From contig JAZKIQ010000006.1 of the NCBI GenBank assembly GCA_040384765.1, positions 20,223-43,407 of the forward strand: a stretch of 23,185 nt of DNA. Reading direction: 5' to 3'. Below the pieces are notes generated by a model that was not told the origin of the DNA, did no database searches, and saw only the letters and a program-made list of their open reading frames with translations. A program made the translations under genes and the position numbers. Positions 2,559 to 21,057 of the stretch are shown here, one piece after another. The DNA is from Patescibacteria group bacterium (lineage in GTDB: Bacteria; Patescibacteriota; Minisyncoccia; Phycocordibacterales; JBBUBG01). Position 1 is the first letter of the stretch. Every line of letters starts with the position of its first letter.

Positions 2559-3023
2559 TTACTTAGCGACGGTTTTTGCCTTCGCTTCACCAACAGAAGA
2601 GATCGTCATCCCACCCTTGCCAATCTTCTCTTCTGCCGAGTGAGAGATGATCACATTTTCGAAAGAAAGCTTCTTTAAAAGCTCGCCACGGCCAAGGATC
2701 TTGATACCGGTGCCACGCTTGTGGCCAGAAAGAAGTCCTTTTGCATGCAATGTTTTTGGAGATACCTTTTCGCCAGACTGGTAGGCTGCTTCGAGCGTAT
2801 CGAGGTTGAGCACAAAAGGCTTCTGGGCAATCTTTGGCACCTGATAACCGCGAAGCTTTGGAATCTTCTTGATCTGGTCGCGGATCTCAGGGCGCTTCTT
2901 GTGGCCCGAGCGAGCATTCTGACCCTTTACACCGCGGCCCGAATAGGTACCGCGCTTGCCGCCGCGGCCTACCGTCTTTACCTTTTTATTCGCGTGTTCG
3001 CGTTTGATCGTATGAAGTTGCAT
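2559..3023 (-). CDS. rplO: 50S ribosomal protein L15 (uL15)
   Basis: VGRGGKRGTYSGRGVKGQNARSG, IPKLRG and IKILGRGEL motifs; position before secY. Confidence 0.97.
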   Translation of the reverse strand: MQLHTIKREHANKKVKTVGRGGKRGTYSGRGVKGQNARSGHKKRPEIRDQIKKIPKLRGYQVPKIAQKPFVLNLDTLEAAYQSGEKVSPKTLHAKGLLSGHKRGTGIKILGRGELLKKLSFENVIISHSAEEKIGKGGMTISSVGEAKAKTVAK

Positions 3024-3029
3024 GGCAGT

Positions 3030-3590
3030 TTATGAAAGCATCTTGAGAGCCTCGATGGTCGCGCGAGCAATGTTGAGTTTGTTTTTCGAAGACGAGAGGA
3101 TCTTTCCGTTTACATCTTTGATCCCTCCGAGCTCGAGCACGTTGCGGAGCGCAGATCCTGCAATGAGGCCGCGACCACGTGCTGGGCGAAGAAACACCTG
3201 TGCGCTTGAATATTTATACTCAATCGTATGGCGGATACTTCCCTCCTTGGTCGTCTTTACCGTAATCATATGCTTCTTCGCATCACGAAGAGCTTTTTCG
3301 ATTGCCGATGCAGTGTCGCCAGCTTTGCCCGTGCCTACACCTACGCGGCCTTTGCGATCGCCAGCAATAATATGCACAGAGAAGTTGAATCGCTTTCCAC
3401 CTGCAACCACGCGCGTTACACGGCGAAGATCGATGATCTTCTGATCAAACTCTGGCTTTACCCGCTCGCGTGCAGGACCGCGGTCGCGTCCACCCGGACG
3501 TCCGCCGCCTGGTCCACCACGACCACCCCGGCCACCTGGGCGGTTGCCGAATGATTTCTGGTCTCTTGGTTGTGGCTGTGTGTTTTCCAT
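3030..3590 (-). CDS. rpsE: 30S ribosomal protein S5 (uS5) with RGG-rich N-terminal extension
   Basis: RRVTRVVAGGKRFNF, GRVGVGTGKA and LRPARGRGLIAG motifs. Confidence 0.98.
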   Translation of the reverse strand: MENTQPQPRDQKSFGNRPGGRGGRGGPGGGRPGGRDRGPARERVKPEFDQKIIDLRRVTRVVAGGKRFNFSVHIIAGDRKGRVGVGTGKAGDTASAIEKALRDAKKHMITVKTTKEGSIRHTIEYKYSSAQVFLRPARGRGLIAGSALRNVLELGGIKDVNGKILSSSKNKLNIARATIEALKMLS

Positions 3591-3593
3591 AAA

Positions 3594-3941
3594 TTAAAAT
3601 TCGAGGCCCGCTTCACGAGCAGCATCTGCAAGTGCCTTTACGCGTCCGGTATACAGGAATCCTCCGCGATCGAACACAACTTTCTTGATGTTCTTTTCGA
3701 GGGCAATCTTTGCAATCTCTTTTCCAACAAGTGCACTCTTCTCGCTCTTTGTTCCTTTTGTCTTAAGTGAAAGAGCGCTAGCTGAAGCGAGCGTCTTCCC
3801 CGCCTCGTCATCGATAACCTGTGCGTAGACGCCCGTATTCGAGCGGTATATTGCAAGTCGTGGAACAGATGCAGTACCAGCTACCCGCATGCGGATGCGG
3901 CTGTGGCGGCGAATTCGTGCTTGTCTCTTGGAAGGTGTCAT
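3594..3941 (-). CDS. rplR: 50S ribosomal protein L18 (uL18)
   Basis: PRLAIYRSN and [28 protein letters not shown]. Confidence 0.98.
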
Positions 3942-3950
3942 GGCGTTTGA

Positions 3951-4499
3951 TTATGCAACAGACTTCTTGCCCTGCTTGCGACGGACTACCTCTGTGTCGT
4001 AGCGAATACCTTTTCCCTTGTATGGCTCCGGCACCTTGAGGGCACGGACAGAGGCAGCAAACTGGCCTACAAGCTCCTTGTCGGGACCAGTAATGGTCAA
4101 AAGGCCTTTTTCAGAGGTCACCTTAATCGTTGCCGGAATCGGCATTTTTACCTGATGTGAAAACCCAAGCGAAAGTACAAGTGTTGTCCCCACAACGTCC
4201 GCCTTGTAGCCAATACCTTCGATCTGGAGCTTCTTTGAAAATCCTTTCGTAACACCAGCAACCATATTTCCGAGGTGCGAAGCGTAGGTACCCCAAAGCG
4301 CATTGAGAAAGATAGACTCTGCCGTTGGCTTGAGCGTAAGTGTGCTCCCCTCGTGTTTGAGAGCGATATCGTTTGAAAAAGGACGTGAAAGCGTGCCAAG
4401 CGGACCTTTTACCATTACGTTTGTGTGCACCTTAAGAGGCTCGAATTTTATTTCGACGCCGCTTGGGATCTCAATAGGCTGTTTGCCGATTCGTGACAT
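3951..4499 (-). CDS. rplF: 50S ribosomal protein L6 (uL6), 182 aa
   Basis: MSRIGKQPI start at ATG 4499; PEPYKGKGIRY motif. Confidence 0.98.
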   Translation of the reverse strand: MSRIGKQPIEIPSGVEIKFEPLKVHTNVMVKGPLGTLSRPFSNDIALKHEGSTLTLKPTAESIFLNALWGTYASHLGNMVAGVTKGFSKKLQIEGIGYKADVVGTTLVLSLGFSHQVKMPIPATIKVTSEKGLLTITGPDKELVGQFAASVRALKVPEPYKGKGIRYDTEVVRRKQGKKSVA

Positions 4500-4503
4500 A
4501 TAA

Positions 4504-4893
4504 TTACCAGATTTGAAACAAAAGCTCACCGCCAACTTTCTCCTTTCGAGCGTCCCTATCAGAGAGGAGACCCTTTGGTGTGGAGAACACAGCAAGACCA
4601 CGACCTTCGCGCACTGGGCGAATCTCAGATACACCAAAGTAGACGCGCTTGCCTGGCTTTGAGATGCGCTTTACATCAGAGACGCGAGCAACGCCTCCCT
4701 TCATTGCAAGCTCAAGCTCGAGATATTTCTTTACCCGCTTCCCTTTCTGAGAAACAGCTGCGAGGTAGCCCGCCTTGGCGAGAATCTCTGCAATCTCCTG
4801 CTTGATGCGTGAGTGCGGAATAACCAAAGTCGCGCGGCCACGGTGGGCTGCGTTCTTTACCTGAGTGAGCATATCTGCGATGGGGTCGGTCAT
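4504..4893 (-). CDS. rpsH: 30S ribosomal protein S8 (uS8)
   Basis: MTDPIADMLT, RISKPGKRVY, STPKG and GGEL motifs. Confidence 0.98.
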   Translation of the reverse strand: MTDPIADMLTQVKNAAHRGRATLVIPHSRIKQEIAEILAKAGYLAAVSQKGKRVKKYLELELAMKGGVARVSDVKRISKPGKRVYFGVSEIRPVREGRGLAVFSTPKGLLSDRDARKEKVGGELLFQIW

Positions 4894-4909
4894 AGAAGTG
4901 AGGAGGAGG

Positions 4910-5095
4910 CTACCAAGACGATTTTTTTACACCCGGGATCTTTCCTTCGTTTGCAAATTCGCGGAAGCAGATTCGGCACATATCAAATGCGCGCATATAG
5001 CCTCGCTTGCGACCGCAGCGAAAGCAACGGCGCGTAGCACGCGTGCTGAACTTTGGCTTCTTTTCTGAACGTGCAATTACGGATGTTTTGGCCAT
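4910..5095 (-). CDS. rpsN: 30S ribosomal protein S14, zinc-binding type Z, 61 aa
   Basis: CxxC-x12-CxxC (CFRC...CRIC) and C-terminal IPGVKKSSW. Confidence 0.98.
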
Positions 5096-5131
5096 ACCTT
5101 AACAAAAATCGTCCTTTTGGACGTGAATTAG

Positions 5132-5160
5132 ATACTAGCAAGACGGAAACCCCTTGTAAA
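5132..5160 (-). promoter_or_regulatory. Putative sigma70 promoter for the rpsN-secY cluster
   Basis: TTTACA-N17-TAGTAT with extended -10 TGn, 36 nt upstream of the rpsN ATG. Confidence 0.7.
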
Positions 5161-5255
5161 GTGGGCCCTTGCTTAGGGGCAGCAAAAGGCCACTTTTTAC
5201 CCTCTTCTTTTGAAGAGGAAAGCGAAAAATGCCTGTACCGCAGAAAAAGGAGCGC

Positions 5256-5313
5256 AAAAAGAGAGGGCCGCCGGATGGTCCAGTTTCCTACTGAAACTGG
5301 CCTCCGGCGGCCC
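5256..5313 (-). terminator. Intrinsic terminator after the 58-aa ORF
   Basis: GGGCCGCCGGA..CCAGTTTC/GAAACTGG..TCCGGCGGCCC stem followed on the minus strand by TCTCTTTTT. Confidence 0.75.
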
Positions 5314-5327
5314 ATGGCGAACGCTAC

Positions 5328-5504
5328 TTAGGCGTTCATGTGATCGTGTCGCGACTCAACGAAGGTCGGCGACCTCATAGCCAACTGCCCCCGGCGCGCC
5401 TCGGCCTGCTTGCGCCGCTGGCGACGGCTGCGGTGATTGTGGCTCTTCTTGCCCTTCTTGCCGCGAGGGCGCAGTGAATGAGGCAGTTCGTCCCAATTTC
5501 GCAT
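5328..5504 (-). CDS. Small basic Arg/Lys/His-rich protein, 58 aa
   Basis: Not in the ORF track: MRNWDELPHSLRPRGKKGKKSHNHRSRRQRRKQAEARRGQLAMRSPTFVESRHDHMNA; GAGGAG 10 nt upstream; own promoter and terminator. Confidence 0.7.
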   Translation of the reverse strand: MRNWDELPHSLRPRGKKGKKSHNHRSRRQRRKQAEARRGQLAMRSPTFVESRHDHMNA

Positions 5505-5595
5505 TCTTCCCGATCTCCTCGAATACTACAGAACTGTTTTTGGAACTCCGCACGGAGTCCCAGACGGCCGTACTACTCCCCCAGGCCGGATGAAA

Positions 5596-5624
5596 AGTAT
5601 AGCAATGGCGGAGCTCGTCATCAA
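5596..5624 (-). promoter_or_regulatory. Putative sigma70 promoter for the 58-aa ORF
   Basis: TTGATG-N17-TATACT with extended -10 TGn. Confidence 0.7.
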
Positions 5625-5669
5625 GAAATTTGGTGGGGAAAAGAAGAGGTCACATGTCGTTTTCTCCTG

Positions 5670-5721
5670 AAAAAGAAAAACCGCCCTCCTCATTCCACGT
5701 GATGGGGATGAAGCTGGCGGT
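5670..5721 (-). terminator. Intrinsic terminator after the 359-aa ORF
   Basis: Interrupted stem closed by ACCGCC/GGCGGT followed on the minus strand by TTTTCTTTTT; a second hairpin lies at about 5727-5755. Confidence 0.65.
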
Positions 5722-5789
5722 CGGTTACTCAGCGGCTACGTGAGCGGCTGAGAGTGTAGTGGAGTTGGGTCGGGCTCGGGCCGGCAGGA

Positions 5790-6869
5790 CTAGTGCGTCT
5801 GCTGGTGCTGGGCGGTCTCGGCGAGCATGGTACCCGCGACGACGGTCGCGAGCGGCCGCAGGTCGATGTCGACCTGCTTGGCCTGGCGGCTGTTGCGGGC
5901 GATGACGACCGCGTCACCGACGCGGCCGATGAGCTCGCTGCCGTTCGCGAGGTGCTTGCCCACGATCGGCGTGACGGAGACCCGCTGGTTCTTGAACGGC
6001 ACCGTGATGAGGTGCAGCTCTCCCTGGCGGCTCTTCGCGATGAAGTAGGTCGCGCCGTTCTTCGACACGATCGCGCGCGAGGTGCGCGGCAGGATCTGGT
6101 ACGGGGTGCTCCCGATCAGGTTCCACGCCATGCCCTTCGTCGCGTTCTCGGGCGTCGTCCCGAGGATCATGTTCTTGGTGAACGCGATCATCATCGGGGT
6201 GTCGTCGGTCTTGACGAGCATCGCGCTCGCCATTGCGCCGTTGCGCAGGAGCACCGGGGCGGGATCGGCGTTGCCGACCTTCACCCACGAGCGGCTCTTG
6301 TGCTTCGGGTTCGCGGCGAGGCGGAGGTCATCGGTGTTCTTCTTCGCGAACGCGTTGACCGCGGTCTTGAAGAAGTCCGAGCTCTCCGGCATGAAGATCC
6401 CAGCGGTCACCACCGTGATCACGCTGAGCTTGCCCTGCTGCACCGTCTGCGCGTAGTTGAAGTACTCGAACCCCGGGCGCTCGAACACCGGCGCCGACGC
6501 CTTGGGGTTGCCCTCGAGAGAGAGCGCACCCTTGGCGTAGGTCACGAGGTGAGCCGACTGGCCATCCTTCGCGATGCCGACGAGCGCGAGCTCGGAGGCA
6601 TTGATGGACTCCAGCGTCTTCCCGAACGCAGCCACGTCGCTGTCGATACCGAACACGAAGACGCGCTCGAGGCCGATGTGCGGGGCCTTGTTCTCCCGGA
6701 TCAGACCCTGCGCCTGCGCGAAGCGCGAGCCCTGATTGCTGCGGCCGTGATTGCGGCCACCGCGGTGATGGCGCCGACCCTGCGGGGCGGTACCGTTCTT
6801 CGCAGCGAGCGCGGCCTTGAGGCGGCGGATCTGGGCGTTCTGGTTCTGACCCTGGTTCTGATTGTTCAC
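5790..6869 (-). CDS. Hypothetical protein, 359 aa, with basic disordered N-terminus
   Basis: GTG start with AAGGAG 5 nt upstream; very strong C/G third-position bias; no family recognised. Confidence 0.85.
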   Translation of the reverse strand: MNNQNQGQNQNAQIRRLKAALAAKNGTAPQGRRHHRGGRNHGRSNQGSRFAQAQGLIRENKAPHIGLERVFVFGIDSDVAAFGKTLESINASELALVGIAKDGQSAHLVTYAKGALSLEGNPKASAPVFERPGFEYFNYAQTVQQGKLSVITVVTAGIFMPESSDFFKTAVNAFAKKNTDDLRLAANPKHKSRSWVKVGNADPAPVLLRNGAMASAMLVKTDDTPMMIAFTKNMILGTTPENATKGMAWNLIGSTPYQILPRTSRAIVSKNGATYFIAKSRQGELHLITVPFKNQRVSVTPIVGKHLANGSELIGRVGDAVVIARNSRQAKQVDIDLRPLATVVAGTMLAETAQHQQTH

Positions 6870-7063
6870 TTAGACTCCTTCGAGTTTCGGTACTTCTTGC
6901 TCGAGCAAGCCAGCCTTGGCTCCTCGAGCTTCGAATCGCATATCCACTACTACTGTGTATCTGCGACCCTGTCAGTGCCGAAACAGTGTTTCGAAGCTGG
7001 CAGGGTCGCAGAACGTTTTGAAAGAACTTTTTTCCAAAAAGGAAACTGCACCAAATGTGCAGG
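6870..7063 (-). promoter_or_regulatory. Structured 5' leader of about 195 nt with boxA-like motif
   Basis: Hairpins CTGCAC/GTGCAG and TCTGCGACCCTG/CAGGGTCGCAGA (6960-7012); AGTTCTTTCAAAA at 7016-7028. Confidence 0.55.
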
Positions 7064-7069
7064 AGGACG

Positions 7070-7098
7070 ATGATAACAAGCTCAGCAATATCTGTCAA
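7070..7098 (-). promoter_or_regulatory. Near-consensus sigma70 promoter for the 359-aa ORF
   Basis: TTGACA-N17-TATCAT with extended -10 TGn. Confidence 0.8.
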
Positions 7099-7113
7099 TA
7101 GTTCTGCTTATTC

Positions 7114-7150
7114 ATAGAAAAAACGCCTCATCATAAGGCGTTTTTTCTAT
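7114..7150. terminator. Intrinsic terminator of groESL (bidirectional shape)
   Basis: ATAGAAAAAACGCCT-N7-AGGCGTTTTTTCTAT. Confidence 0.85.
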
Positions 7151-7173
7151 CTTCAGCCTCTGGCGAGGTGCGT

Positions 7174-7338
7174 GATCCCTGACAAGAACATCTGCAGGAA
7201 ACCTTTAAAAGAAAGGAGTCCTGGCTACCGAAAATAGTGGTCGTACGACACGAAGTGCGTACGGGAACCGCGACCATTTTCGAGGAGTCAGGACGACTAT
7301 TCTTTTTTAGGTTTCCGAAGCCGTTCGGGGCAGGGATC
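7174..7338 (-). repeat. Long imperfect palindrome, copy B of the 3'-UTR hairpin family
   Basis: GATCCCTG/CAGGGATC outer stem; AACATCTGCAGGAAA, AGTCCTGGCT, CAGGACGACT and TTTCCGAAGCCGTT match motifs in 1006-1158; starts 9 nt after the groEL stop. Confidence 0.85.
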
Positions 7339-7347
7339 TCCGCCGAG

Positions 7348-9077
<1,730 letters not shown>

Positions 9078-13818: not shown

Positions 13819-14048
13819 TAATCTGTCTGACAAAAATCGGGCGTTGCGATCGTGCTTCCACGCCGGTGGAGTGGCAGGCTACAATAATGGACGGGCTAAA
13901 AATTGCACAACGTAGAGTAGCAAAAGAGCCGCAACGATGCGCGTTGTAATTGCGAGCGCTTTATTCGAAGCAAACTGAGCTGCATAAAACAGGACAGCAC
14001 TTCCTCCAAGAAACAAAGCAAGAATGATGATCATGGAAAAAGCTTAAC

Positions 14049-14633
14049 ATGGAAATAACTCGTCCTGAATCAAAACAGCCACTTCCCTCGCACGCAAAAC
14101 GGGTGTGGAAAGGAGGTCTGTTTGAAGTGTACGAATGGGAGCAGGAGCTTTTTGATGGGAGCTTCGAGACGTTTGAAAAGCTCAAGCGGCGCGATACGGT
14201 ATCGGTGATCCCCGTTACAAAGGAAGGTACGATCATCATCAACCTCGAGGAGCAGCCGGGCCACAGCGCACCCTTCTTTACCAACCCTGCAGGCCAGCTC
14301 GAAGAGGGTGAGCAGGTGCTTGCAGGTGCTGCACGCGAGCTCCTTGAAGAGACAGGGTACACGGCGGAAAGCTGGGAGCTGTGGCACTCGCTCCAGCCAG
14401 TAACAAAGATCGACTGGGCGGTATATATCTTGATTGCCAAGGGGTGCGTGAAGGCCCAAGAAGCCACCCCGGACATCGGAGAGAAAATCGAGCTGCGCGA
14501 AGTCACCTTCGAACAGTTCTGCTCTATGGTAGCGACTGGAGTAATTGCCCACGACAACATGCGCATTGCAGTACTAGAAGCGATGGTCTACCCCGAAAAG
14601 ATGATCGAGCTGAGAAAGCTTTTCGGCTTCTAG
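14049..14633 (+). CDS. Nudix hydrolase (ADP-ribose pyrophosphatase-like)
   Basis: Nudix box GQLEEGEQVLAGAARELLEETGY; substrate is inference. Confidence 0.92.
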   Translation: MEITRPESKQPLPSHAKRVWKGGLFEVYEWEQELFDGSFETFEKLKRRDTVSVIPVTKEGTIIINLEEQPGHSAPFFTNPAGQLEEGEQVLAGAARELLEETGYTAESWELWHSLQPVTKIDWAVYILIAKGCVKAQEATPDIGEKIELREVTFEQFCSMVATGVIAHDNMRIAVLEAMVYPEKMIELRKLFGF

Positions 14634-18843: not shown

Positions 18844-19284
18844 TTATCTGTGTGCGGAAGACACGTTGTTCCCAGCTCTCCTCGTTCGAGGCAAGCTGGT
18901 CTCGCGAAAGCGATAGTATCGATCGATCGCGAGCAGGGTCTGGATGCGTACTTCGTCGGGCGTATAGCGTGGCAGCACGCCAACCGGAACAATGCCCATT
19001 CGGAAGAACATCTCCTCCCGAACAGCACTTATCCTCCGGGCTTTTATCTGAATCCGGATCGGGACTCCGATCGCCGTCAGGATGACAGCATCGGTCTTCT
19101 CCCTCTCATCCTCGTAGCGCGTGCCAGGGCGCACTTCGACGAGCCAGCGAGGCTTCCATCGATAGTTGTGCCATGCGGCAATAAACATCCGCTCAGCAGT
19201 GTTGCCCTTTTCACGGCCGCGCTCTCCCTGTTCGCGGAGGTGCGCCGCATGACTTTCGTAAGGCGTTCGCCTTTCTTTTCTCAC
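18844..19284 (-). CDS. Small basic protein, putative PD-(D/E)XK nuclease fold
   Basis: GNTAE helix, TDAVI and IQIK pattern; GTG start with AGGGGG upstream; own promoter and terminator. Confidence 0.65.
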   Translation of the reverse strand: MRKERRTPYESHAAHLREQGERGREKGNTAERMFIAAWHNYRWKPRWLVEVRPGTRYEDEREKTDAVILTAIGVPIRIQIKARRISAVREEMFFRMGIVPVGVLPRYTPDEVRIQTLLAIDRYYRFRETSLPRTRRAGNNVSSAHR

Positions 19285-19647: not shown

Positions 19648-21057
19648 TTAAGAAAGCTTCTTCTCAAAAATCTCCTTGAGCATTCCTGGGTTGGCACTTC
19701 CTTTTGAGAGCTTCATGCCTTGGCCGATGAGGAACTGAAGGGAGGCGGCTTTGCCGGCTTTATATTCGGCGAATACAGCAGCGTTTGTTGCGATCACTTC
19801 ATCAACAATCTTTTCAATAGCTCCTGCATCACTCTTCTGGAAGAGGCCATGCTCCTCGGCAATTGTCTTTGGATCGCGTGAATCTTTTGCCATAAGGGCG
19901 AGGAGATCCTTTGCACCACGACTTCCAATCTCGCCCATCTTCACGAGCCGCACAAGGTCTGCGATATACACGGGGTTGAACGCCGCAGTCGTAACACCGA
20001 CTGTTTTCGTGAGCGCAGCAATATCGGTAGTGATGTAGTTTGAAGCAAGCGCCGAAAGCTCTTTGTCGTTCTTGAGCGCCTCTGCAACATGCTCGAAAAA
20101 AGTGCCGGCCTGCTCGTCGTTTACAAAAATCTCCACAGCTTCAGCGCGCAAGCCAAACTCGCGAGAAAGGCGCTCTCGCCGCTCCCATGGAAGCTCAGGC
20201 AGGGTTGCTTTGATATTTTTAAACTCTTCGATCTCATTCACTTTGAGCTTCGGCAGATCAGGATCAGGAAAATAGCGGTAGTCGAAAGCGTTCTCTTTGG
20301 TCCGCTGGCTAAAGGTTTTCTGCTTCACGTCGTCCCAGCCGCGCGTCTCCTGCGCGATGGTGCCACCCGACTCGAGCACCTCCTCGTGTCGCTTGAGCTC
20401 ATATTCGATAGCCCGCTCCACAGCACTGAATGAGTTGATGTTTTTTACCTCAACTTTCGTGCCAAACTTATTGGGATCTTTCGAGATAGAGATGTTCGCC
20501 TCTACGCGCATCTCCCCCTTTTCCATATTCGCTTCTGAGGCCCCGAGATAGCGCAAAAGAAGCTGTAGCTCACGGGCAAACGCGCCGGCGGTTTTTGAAT
20601 CATGAATAACCGGCTCGGTGACAAGCTCCATCAAGGGCACACCCGCGCGGTTGTAGTCGATGAGACTCTGCGTACCCTCGTGCTGCGAGCGAGCGGTGTC
20701 CTCTTCGAGGTGAATGCGCGTAAGTGCAACGCCGTTTAGTGTGCCTCCCGAAATAAGCGGATATTTGTACTGGCTGATCTGATACCCCTTTGGAATATCT
20801 GGGTAGAAATAGTTTTTGCGGTCGAACTCGGTAAAGTCAGCGATCGATCCCCCGACAGCAGTACCCACGCGAAGCACGTGCCGCACCGCCGCCTTGTTGA
20901 TCACCGGCAATGTGCCAGGATGCGCCATACAGACTGGGCAGATGTTTACGTTCGGCTCTTTTTCATCAGGGTCGTTCTTAGAGCGGCAAAACATCTTTGT
21001 CGCAGTCGCGAGCTCAGCGTGCACTTCGAGACCGATTGTCGGGAAATAGTCAGACAT
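19648..21057 (-). CDS. gatB: Asp-tRNA(Asn)/Glu-tRNA(Gln) amidotransferase subunit B
   Basis: IGLEVHAEL, FDRKNYFYPD, HLEED, DYNRAGVPLMELVTEP and DYRYFPDPDL. Confidence 0.98.
   Translation of the reverse strand: MSDYFPTIGLEVHAELATATKMFCRSKNDPDEKEPNVNICPVCMAHPGTLPVINKAAVRHVLRVGTAVGGSIADFTEFDRKNYFYPDIPKGYQISQYKYPLISGGTLNGVALTRIHLEEDTARSQHEGTQSLIDYNRAGVPLMELVTEPVIHDSKTAGAFARELQLLLRYLGASEANMEKGEMRVEANISISKDPNKFGTKVEVKNINSFSAVERAIEYELKRHEEVLESGGTIAQETRGWDDVKQKTFSQRTKENAFDYRYFPDPDLPKLKVNEIEEFKNIKATLPELPWERRERLSREFGLRAEAVEIFVNDEQAGTFFEHVAEALKNDKELSALASNYITTDIAALTKTVGVTTAAFNPVYIADLVRLVKMGEIGSRGAKDLLALMAKDSRDPKTIAEEHGLFQKSDAGAIEKIVDEVIATNAAVFAEYKAGKAASLQFLIGQGMKLSKGSANPGMLKEIFEKKLS

Follow-up and report, generated by a model that had tools for sequence, protein, structure and literature searches.

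Two GC3-rich orphan genes that look self-contained between groEL and rpsN in an ultra-small Parcubacteria-type genome

The spc operon of ribosomal protein genes is as a rule strongly conserved, and a locus where two orphan genes stand between a chaperonin operon and a ribosomal protein operon raises the question of what these genes are, whether they form a unit and how they came to be there. The locus lies in a stretch of 23,185 nucleotides (nt) that was analyzed in full and is termed the window (positions 20,223 to 43,407 of contig JAZKIQ010000006.1, assembly GCA_040384765.1), the terminal 23 kb of a contig of 43 kb in the ultra-small genome (0.82 Mb, 12 contigs, rated 99.8% complete) of an uncultured, Parcubacteria-type bacterium of the candidate phyla radiation (CPR). 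The gene order on its minus strand is groES, groEL, ORF359, ORF58, rpsN, rpsH, rplF, rplR, rpsE, rplO, and secY. An initial sequence-only reading had reported two co-oriented orphan open reading frames (ORFs) between groEL and rpsN, of 359 and 58 amino acids, and both were located on the minus strand, ORF359 at 5790..6869 (GTG start, isoelectric point (pI) 10.3) and ORF58 at 5328..5504 (ATG start, pI 12). That reading took the pair as a single nucleic acid-binding module of basic proteins, either highly expressed or horizontally acquired, at a break in the spc operon. The evidence presented here gives a modest preference to another answer, that these are two separate, self-contained accessory genes of a class that recurs in this genome, situated in a permissive slot.

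Each of the two units would be built in the same way, as a promoter, a leader, a Shine-Dalgarno motif (SD), an ORF, and a terminator. The promoter-like site of ORF359 (7070..7098, minus strand) consists of TTGACA, a spacer of 17 nt, and TG-n-TATCAT (11 of 12 positions plus an extended -10), and at 12/13 it shares the top score of a genome-wide promoter scan. It would be followed by a predicted 5′ leader of ~190 nt (6870..7063, minus strand) that contains a short hairpin with a U-run (7062-7046), a near-palindrome (7012-6960), a third hairpin (~6928-6898), and the SD AAGGAG (6880-6875). The palindrome, with near-perfect arms of 26 nt, is unique in the genome, and the leader region (7064-6860) folds with a z score of -4.9, a stability that 0 of 200 shuffled sequences reached. 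A scan of 4500-7800 with Rfam gave no match at or near threshold, and none for the leader at E ≤ 1. Behind ORF359 a predicted intrinsic terminator (5668..5722, minus strand) has its stem at 5722-5679, then UUUUUCUUUUU, and is present in both the minimum free energy and the centroid structures. ORF58 has a promoter-like site of its own (5596..5624, minus strand; TTGATG, 17 nt, TG-n-TATACT; 9/12 plus TG), the SD GAGGAG (5520-5515), and a predicted intrinsic terminator (5255..5313, minus strand) in which a GC-rich stem of ~20 bp (5313-5265) is followed by UCUCUUUUU, with a fold z score of -6.2. A simple terminator scanner missed both of these long hairpins. Three sigma-70-like sites with 17-nt spacers and TG are found on the minus strand, compared with 0.9 ± 0.9 expected from shuffled sequence.

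On the upstream side, the predicted intrinsic terminator of groEL (7114..7150, minus strand; 18-nt arms, 94% complementary, with flanking A and T runs) insulates the locus from groESL. Downstream, the slot is bounded by the promoter-like site of the rpsN-secY operon (5132..5160, minus strand; TTTACA, 17 nt, TAGTAT), rpsN itself being at 4910..5095 on the same strand. The terminators on both sides would thereby insulate the two units from groESL upstream and from the ribosomal protein operon downstream. The features that had been proposed for each ORF from the letters alone have thus held up well, including the extended -10 promoters with 17-nt spacers (7098-7070 and 5624-5596), a hairpin-rich leader in the case of ORF359, a hairpin with a U-run after each gene, and a clear SD on both, a motif that most of the neighboring genes do not show. 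These signals support the view that ORF359 and ORF58 look like real, self-contained transcription units.

The two units also stand out by composition. In 400-nt windows the GC content is 0.63-0.67 over 5601-6800 and ~0.50 on either side, and the locus is the GC-richest 1-kb window of the entire genome (0.666 versus a mean of 0.517 with a standard deviation (sd) of 0.030). The GC content at the first, second, and third codon positions (GC1, GC2, and GC3) is 0.61, 0.44, and 0.93 in ORF359 and 0.63, 0.49, and 0.76 in ORF58. By comparison, GC3 is 0.59 in groEL and 0.41-0.57 in the ribosomal protein genes, and its genome mean is 0.557 with an sd of 0.075 (790 crude genes). The GC-richness first noticed in two short samples is therefore borne out by the 400-nt windows, by the 1-kb scan of the genome, and by GC3 genome-wide. 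GC1 and GC2 of ORF359 are host-like and only the synonymous sites are strongly shifted. This shift is not the ordinary expression-linked codon bias of the genome because core genes with high expression have no such excess at GC3.

ORF359 and ORF58 are not alone in this respect. When 782 crude genes were split at GC3 ≥ 0.7, 36 were GC3-rich, ORF359 and ORF58 among them. A promoter match of at least 11/13 within 300 nt upstream was present in 11 of the 36 and in 16 of the other 746 genes (31% versus 2%, p 3e-9), and a 5-mer SD at -20 to -4 in 20 of the 36 and 41 of the 746 (56% versus 5.5%, p 8e-15), so that the GC3-rich genes are enriched ~15-fold in near-consensus extended -10 promoters and ~10-fold in AGGAG-type SDs. 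Among the core genes, SDs are not enriched relative to a control window (22 and 20 of 182, respectively). No Pfam family was found above cut-off for 28 of the 37 genes with GC3 ≥ 0.7 that were scanned. ORF359 and ORF58 combine high GC3, their own promoter-like site, an AGGAG-type SD, and a predicted terminator of their own, and they belong to this genome-wide class of ~36 GC3-rich, self-contained, and mostly orphan genes. Other examples are seen at C2:27497-28504, C4:43646-45055, C5:73455-74354, C6:136-618, and C11:2254-3099. At C2:26444-28504, a 241-aa orphan (GC3 0.79) is next to a gene that resembles DndB/DGQHR (GC3 0.91; Pfam E 1e-5, which is below cut-off), and this pair may be a small defense-type islet.

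Is ORF359 a real gene? Two lines of evidence show that it is. One is a variant of the locus, 5-10% diverged, that is held by a second sample of the same study (X2; the probable source run of the assembly is termed X1). In the 3′ part of ORF359 the variant has 13 base changes in 11 codons and only 3 residue changes, and there is an in-frame insertion of 12 nt in the Q/N-rich N-terminus, all of the other listed indels (five single-base or short ones and one 38-nt replacement) falling in non-coding DNA. ORF359 is under purifying selection, and its divergence is that of rpsH and rpsN. The other is the recovery of three homologues (P0002-P0004) from 1.84 billion representative proteins searched exhaustively with HMMER, with lengths of 369, 341, and 302 aa and identities to ORF359 of 42% (E 2e-64), 32% (E 3e-27), and 26% (E 1e-11), respectively. 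All four sequences are unnamed singletons, those of the relatives on contigs of 2.2-3.7 kb (3189, 3707, and 2203 bp for P0002, P0003, and P0004), and their alignment (A1) is invariant at 25 columns, including those of SAHxVxY, DxRxxxxP, WxLxG, and SR, in which E68 and D181 are the only invariant acidic residues. In X2, a separate observation is that the 38 nt at 5631-5668, between the terminator stem of ORF359 and the ORF58 promoter, are swapped for 6 other letters, which takes away most of the U-run region of that terminator. A joint from 6950 to 7036 hints that the variant may also lack the leader palindrome (an 85-nt deletion), a hint not trusted with a side of only 20 nt.

ORF359 founds a new and very rare family of four known sequences. 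Word-based searches recovered the query alone with ORF359 and only P0001 and P0004 with the profile A1. No match to ORF359 was found in Pfam or NCBIfam, in keeping with the initial view of it as an orphan, and the PADLOC defense models gave 0 families at E ≤ 1 for ORF359, ORF58, and P0002-P0004. Matches to PHROGs were marginal and inconsistent, each family being matched by one of the four members (phrog_17105, E 0.009). A sequence search of the PDB with ORF359 alone gave no match, and with the family profile the best one, which was not significant, was to "Capsid protein" (E 0.06) on the low-complexity basic arm. There was no tblastn match in 50,697 phage records or in plasmid records, and neither the 211 stretches that matched the search pattern in JGI metagenomes nor the 43 in IMG/VR were confirmed. 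No donor-like homologue was found among ~15 billion proteins. The two genes are accessory, the pair being found neither in 60 relatives, three of them of the same family, nor in 400 genomes sampled from the phylum. A full-text literature search found no paper on the ORF359 family, on GC-rich SD-led accessory genes of CPR bacteria, or on the slot between rplE and rpsN.

ORF58 is the less certain of the two. In X2 it has 8 nucleotide changes in 7 codons that lead to 3 amino acid changes and no indel inside the ORF, and an overlapping alternative frame of 65 aa gains a stop; on these grounds it probably does encode a protein, which would be a small and very basic one made from its own transcript. 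The idea that ORF58 and ORF359 form one module did not survive. A terminator and a separate promoter are predicted between the two genes, ORF58 has no homologue, and the pair has been seen together elsewhere only in the X2 variant, which is of the same lineage.

What the ORF359 protein might do can be approached from its charge and its predicted structure. A pI of at least 10.3 is found in only 2 of 381 crude ORFs of at least 250 aa. The Arg/His-rich tracts that had been pointed out in both proteins are present as quoted. The folded bodies of all four family members are basic (pI 9.4-9.8), and the N-terminal arm has a net charge of +10, +14, and +5 in three of the four, P0004 being without a basic arm. 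AlphaFold2 models were obtained for ORF359 (predicted local distance difference test (pLDDT) 70.8, predicted template modeling score (pTM) 0.69) and for P0002 (pLDDT 75.7, pTM 0.71). In both, a helix at the N-terminus is followed by a disordered basic arm, then by a confidently predicted beta-rich body that contains three short helices, and last by a helix at the C-terminus, and the layout of a basic disordered arm plus a beta-rich body proposed earlier is therefore reproduced. In ORF359 the first helix is at 6-24, the Q/N/R/H-rich arm at 25-58 (pLDDT < 50), and the beta-propeller-like body at ~60-330, followed by the C-terminal helix.

Beta-propellers made up every top match when the two models were searched against structural representatives. 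The matches of ORF359 had Z scores of 9.6 (5wlc_LS, WD40, 169 residues aligned), 9.0, and 8.9 (GH62, 211 aligned), and 23 chains reached a Z score of 8 or more. P0002 had none at that level, its best matches being five-bladed GH43 chains (Z 7.7-7.0, ~205 aligned). Such Z scores may reflect only a common arrangement, and the body is therefore called propeller-like and is not assigned to a propeller family. Sequence profiles of the propeller repeat families (WD40, Kelch, PQQ, GH43, and others, in Pfam and NCBIfam) gave no match. The ESM Atlas contained no usable match for ORF359 or for the P0002 body, and its own models of these are poor (pLDDT 0.40 and 0.34). Of the two folds that had been suggested for ORF359, the propeller is thus favored by the top, if weak, matches (Z 7.7-9.6) and the capsid-like one is not, with no jelly-roll or phage match, no capsid chain among the best 50 of 48,161 chains for either model, and template modeling (TM) scores of ≤ 0.31 in BFVD. 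By inspection, none of the four family sequences begins with a hydrophobic, signal-like segment, and the protein is predicted to be cytoplasmic. A reasonable guess is that it most likely binds a polyanion, RNA or DNA, or acts as a scaffold.

The site that the two genes occupy is itself informative. The remaining genes of the S10/spc cluster, through rplE, lie on a different contig, which confirms the break in the spc operon, with rplV..rplN-rplX-rplE at C4:110587-113576 and unrelated genes thereafter. Such a break is not peculiar to this genome. Among 23 relatives of the order that were examined, two have contigs that end right upstream of rpsN, and of the 21 that can be assessed, rplE is ≤ 230 bp from rpsN in nine, six have inserts of 0.36-4.2 kb between the two genes, and six have no rplE within 3.7-6 kb of rpsN. 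The junction is altered, therefore, in 12 of 21 (relatives G004-G024, loci L010-L042). As examples, G022 has three metabolic genes in the slot, G007 an acidic orphan of 442 aa, and G005 an orphan of 174 aa, and in G020 the order is groEL, two orphans, and then rpsN. The genes inserted in the slot are unrelated to each other, and when the orphans of G020 (366 and 374 aa) and G007 (442 aa) were compared with A1 by hhalign they proved unrelated (probability < 1%). Because this junction varies and rpsN has its own promoter-like site, rplE|rpsN is considered an operon boundary that tolerates insertions. The location, which had appeared to be a unique breakpoint, is less special as the slot is recurrently variable in the order.

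A sharp difference in composition between a locus and its flanks might mean that the assembly is chimeric or includes a contaminant fragment. One Logan contig from run X1 covers 5319-8167 with 0 differences and joins groEL, ORF359, and ORF58, and an adjoining one covers 3500-5313, the depths of neighboring contigs being 7.0, 7.6, and 6.9. This speaks against a chimera on the groEL side, where the contig is continuous with equal depth on both sides of the locus, although it is not a fully independent check because the Logan contigs derive from the same data. A third run, X3, gave only short spurious pieces of the locus. The Logan contigs break at 5313/5319, and the 5-nt gap (5314-5318) falls in the GC-rich 20-bp terminator hairpin at ~7x coverage. 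The longest ORF of the region is not ORF359 but one of 426 aa on the plus strand (5793..7073), and this might be taken as the true gene. Its GC1 is 0.86, it has no homologues, and the third-position changes of ORF359 in X2 are at its first codon positions; it is rejected as an antisense shadow. Assembly chimerism looks unlikely, and an artefact of any of these kinds is given next to no credence. More serious is the proposal that ~1.9 kb was freshly imported as one piece by horizontal transfer from a GC-rich, SD-using donor and has not yet ameliorated. It would account for the GC-richest kilobase of the genome and a GC3 of 0.93, for the presence of AGGAG-type SDs although the genome as a whole is not enriched in SDs and its relatives have no canonical anti-SD, and for the failure to find the locus in 60 relatives and in 400 genomes of the phylum, and islands of horizontal gene transfer are reported to be common in Patescibacteria (PMC12455944). 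However, GC3 alone is extreme, with GC1 (0.61) and GC2 (0.44) remaining host-like. From the general relation among the three codon positions, a donor with 66-70% GC would raise GC1 too. A single event is also a poor fit to ~36 dispersed genes with the same signals, and ORF359 of X2 is as diverged as rpsH and rpsN (5-10%), so the genes predate that split. In addition, as had been noted at the outset for integrases and att sites, the window lacks an integrase or recombinase family (Pfam, 22 ORFs), a tRNA, and flanking direct repeats; the phage, plasmid, and donor searches described above were likewise negative. Since only the synonymous sites are extreme and the X2 divergence matches that of rpsH and rpsN, a very recent high-GC import is not the simplest reading, and it is judged unlikely.

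Three further explanations concern the nature of ORF359 itself. Its position between groESL and rpsN, a promoter-like site in the strongest score class of the genome, and the combination of a basic tail and a basic body would suit a native, lineage-specific, and highly expressed translation or chaperone factor, such as a ribosome-associated propeller with a basic tail placed there for co-regulation. This is very unlikely, as the gene is not found in 60 relatives, including those of the same family, the slot of other genomes is either empty or filled by unrelated genes, its codon usage is unlike that of groEL and the ribosomal protein genes, and the predicted terminators are its own, so it would not be co-transcribed with its neighbors. 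Capture from a small virus or mobile element, with ORF359 as a capsid-like protein or nucleoprotein that has a basic N-terminal arm, is hardly to be expected either. The disordered basic arm of three of the four members, the extreme rarity of the family, the weak match of the arm profile to capsid chains, and the occurrence of all three homologues as singletons on very short contigs would be consistent with it, but the match (E 0.06) is not significant and is in low-complexity basic sequence, the structural matches are all propellers with no capsid fold, the searches of phage records and IMG/VR found nothing and those of PHROGs nothing consistent, and most contigs in the collections that hold the homologues are short anyway. 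A broader form of the same idea, which we regard as improbable, is that the GC3-rich genes with consensus promoters and SDs are "ready-to-express" cassettes from a mobile element or virus of Parcubacteria, of which ORF359 would be the packaging or scaffold protein. The cassettes would insert at permissive sites, rplE|rpsN being one of them, ORF359 would join a capsid-like basic arm to a propeller body and be retained in the host through purifying selection, and translation would proceed by an SD route that is unused by the host genes and probably by its anti-SD-less 16S rRNA.

The preferred interpretation, of two separate accessory genes of a recurrent class in a permissive slot, has its own difficulties, and these weigh against it or against parts of it. 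The expression signals, from the promoters and the leader to the use of the SDs and the terminators, are predicted, and the crude gene set from which the class was defined holds some wrong starts and shadow ORFs. The junction between ORF58 and rpsN (5314-5318) is not bridged by any Logan contig, and in X2 the rpsN piece and the ORF58 piece are physically unlinked. ORF58 has only itself as a match in word-based searches, and its coding status is read from 8 substitutions. Both AlphaFold2 models were built from four-sequence alignments, the fold match is weak (Foldseek found propellers again, at TM ≤ 0.32), and alignment of A1 against itself by hhalign gave no off-diagonal match, as would mark a blade repeat. 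The suggestion of nucleic acid binding comes from charge, and basic charge is not evidence of binding. The SDs pose a particular problem. In all nine readable relatives of the order the 3′ tail of the 16S rRNA ends ...GGAAUAUUUCC... without the CCUCC anti-SD (five further rows were mis-located and were dropped, and the assembly lacks the 16S rRNA of the host itself), and a search of the genome for uL1 found none. In addition, rpsE is directly followed by rplO (3023-3030) with no rpmD (uL30) between them. In PMC9297842, absence of rpmD (uL30) and uL1 is described for a Parcubacteria subgroup of CPR and loss of the anti-SD is reported in uL1-less Parcubacteria. Because the 16S rRNAs of relatives are without CCUCC and uL1 was not found, it is doubtful that the AGGAG motifs are working SDs; they may be relics, and relics would favor import.

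Several other elements lie near the two units. A copy of a dispersed hairpin repeat of ~140 nt is found directly after the groEL stop codon (7187..7325, minus strand) and adjoins the accessory units but is not part of them (groEL is at 7348..9003 and groES at 9392-9081, both on the minus strand). The repeat has 10 copies in the genome, with a second one in the window after secY (1023-1141) and the others at C10:22130-22268, C3:18851-18990, C4:115007-115143, C5:178812-178956, C5:117284-117431, C1:156208-156354, C1:75870-76025, and C7:3650-3790. Its consensus fold has 58 pairs, 40 of them with compensatory double changes between copies, and the outer flanks differ in each copy and are still self-complementary. 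It was not found in the 60 relatives and has no Rfam match. Three more ORFs of the window, of 146-201 aa, are without a Pfam family (444-905, 13961-14566, and 18844-19284, all on the minus strand).

An islet of orphan genes is on its own a common sight in CPR genomes. What is of wider interest is the presence of two expression styles within one genome of 0.82 Mb, a core without SDs and with moderate GC3 and a set of ~36 accessory genes with SDs, strong promoter-like sites, and high GC3. Because relatives of the lineage have no canonical anti-SD, how the SD-led genes are translated becomes a testable question. Moreover, within this order an spc operon that is otherwise highly conserved is repeatedly open at one slot, rplE|rpsN, and the ORF359 family, with its confidently predicted core, invites structural and biochemical study.

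Among known systems, the two units resemble the "morons" of phages, which according to Hendrix and colleagues are reportedly independent units of promoter, ORF, and terminator between other genes, often with a different base composition. ORF359 and ORF58 share with them a predicted promoter and terminator of their own, a place between conserved transcription units, and an atypical composition. They differ in that they are in a bacterial chromosome and not a prophage, with no phage gene nearby, and are part of ~36 such units across the genome. At the protein level, ORF359 and P0002 share with the beta-propellers, both the five-bladed GH43/GH62 type and the WD40 type, the shape seen in all of their top structural matches. 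ORF359 differs from them in having no family sequence match and no internal repeat, and its model (TM ≤ 0.32) has helices inserted between the sheets as well as the N-terminal basic arm. Compared with the islands of horizontal gene transfer of Patescibacteria (PMC12455944), the locus has no integrase, tRNA, or direct repeats, only its synonymous sites are strongly shifted, and there is no named homologue or donor; what it shares with those islands is an atypical GC content, an accessory status, with no copy found in the searched relatives, and a CPR host with a streamlined genome. Finally, the slot itself has a counterpart in the S10-spc-alpha cluster, which according to PMC8046335 is strongly conserved in Gammaproteobacteria and Bacilli and where insertions are suggested to relax the selection for keeping operons joined. 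The likeness is in the insertion of genes into the cluster and the subsequent loss of synteny. The events described there are rare and mostly between operons, whereas the break described here is inside spc, and the junction is altered in 12 of the 21 assessable relatives of a single CPR order.

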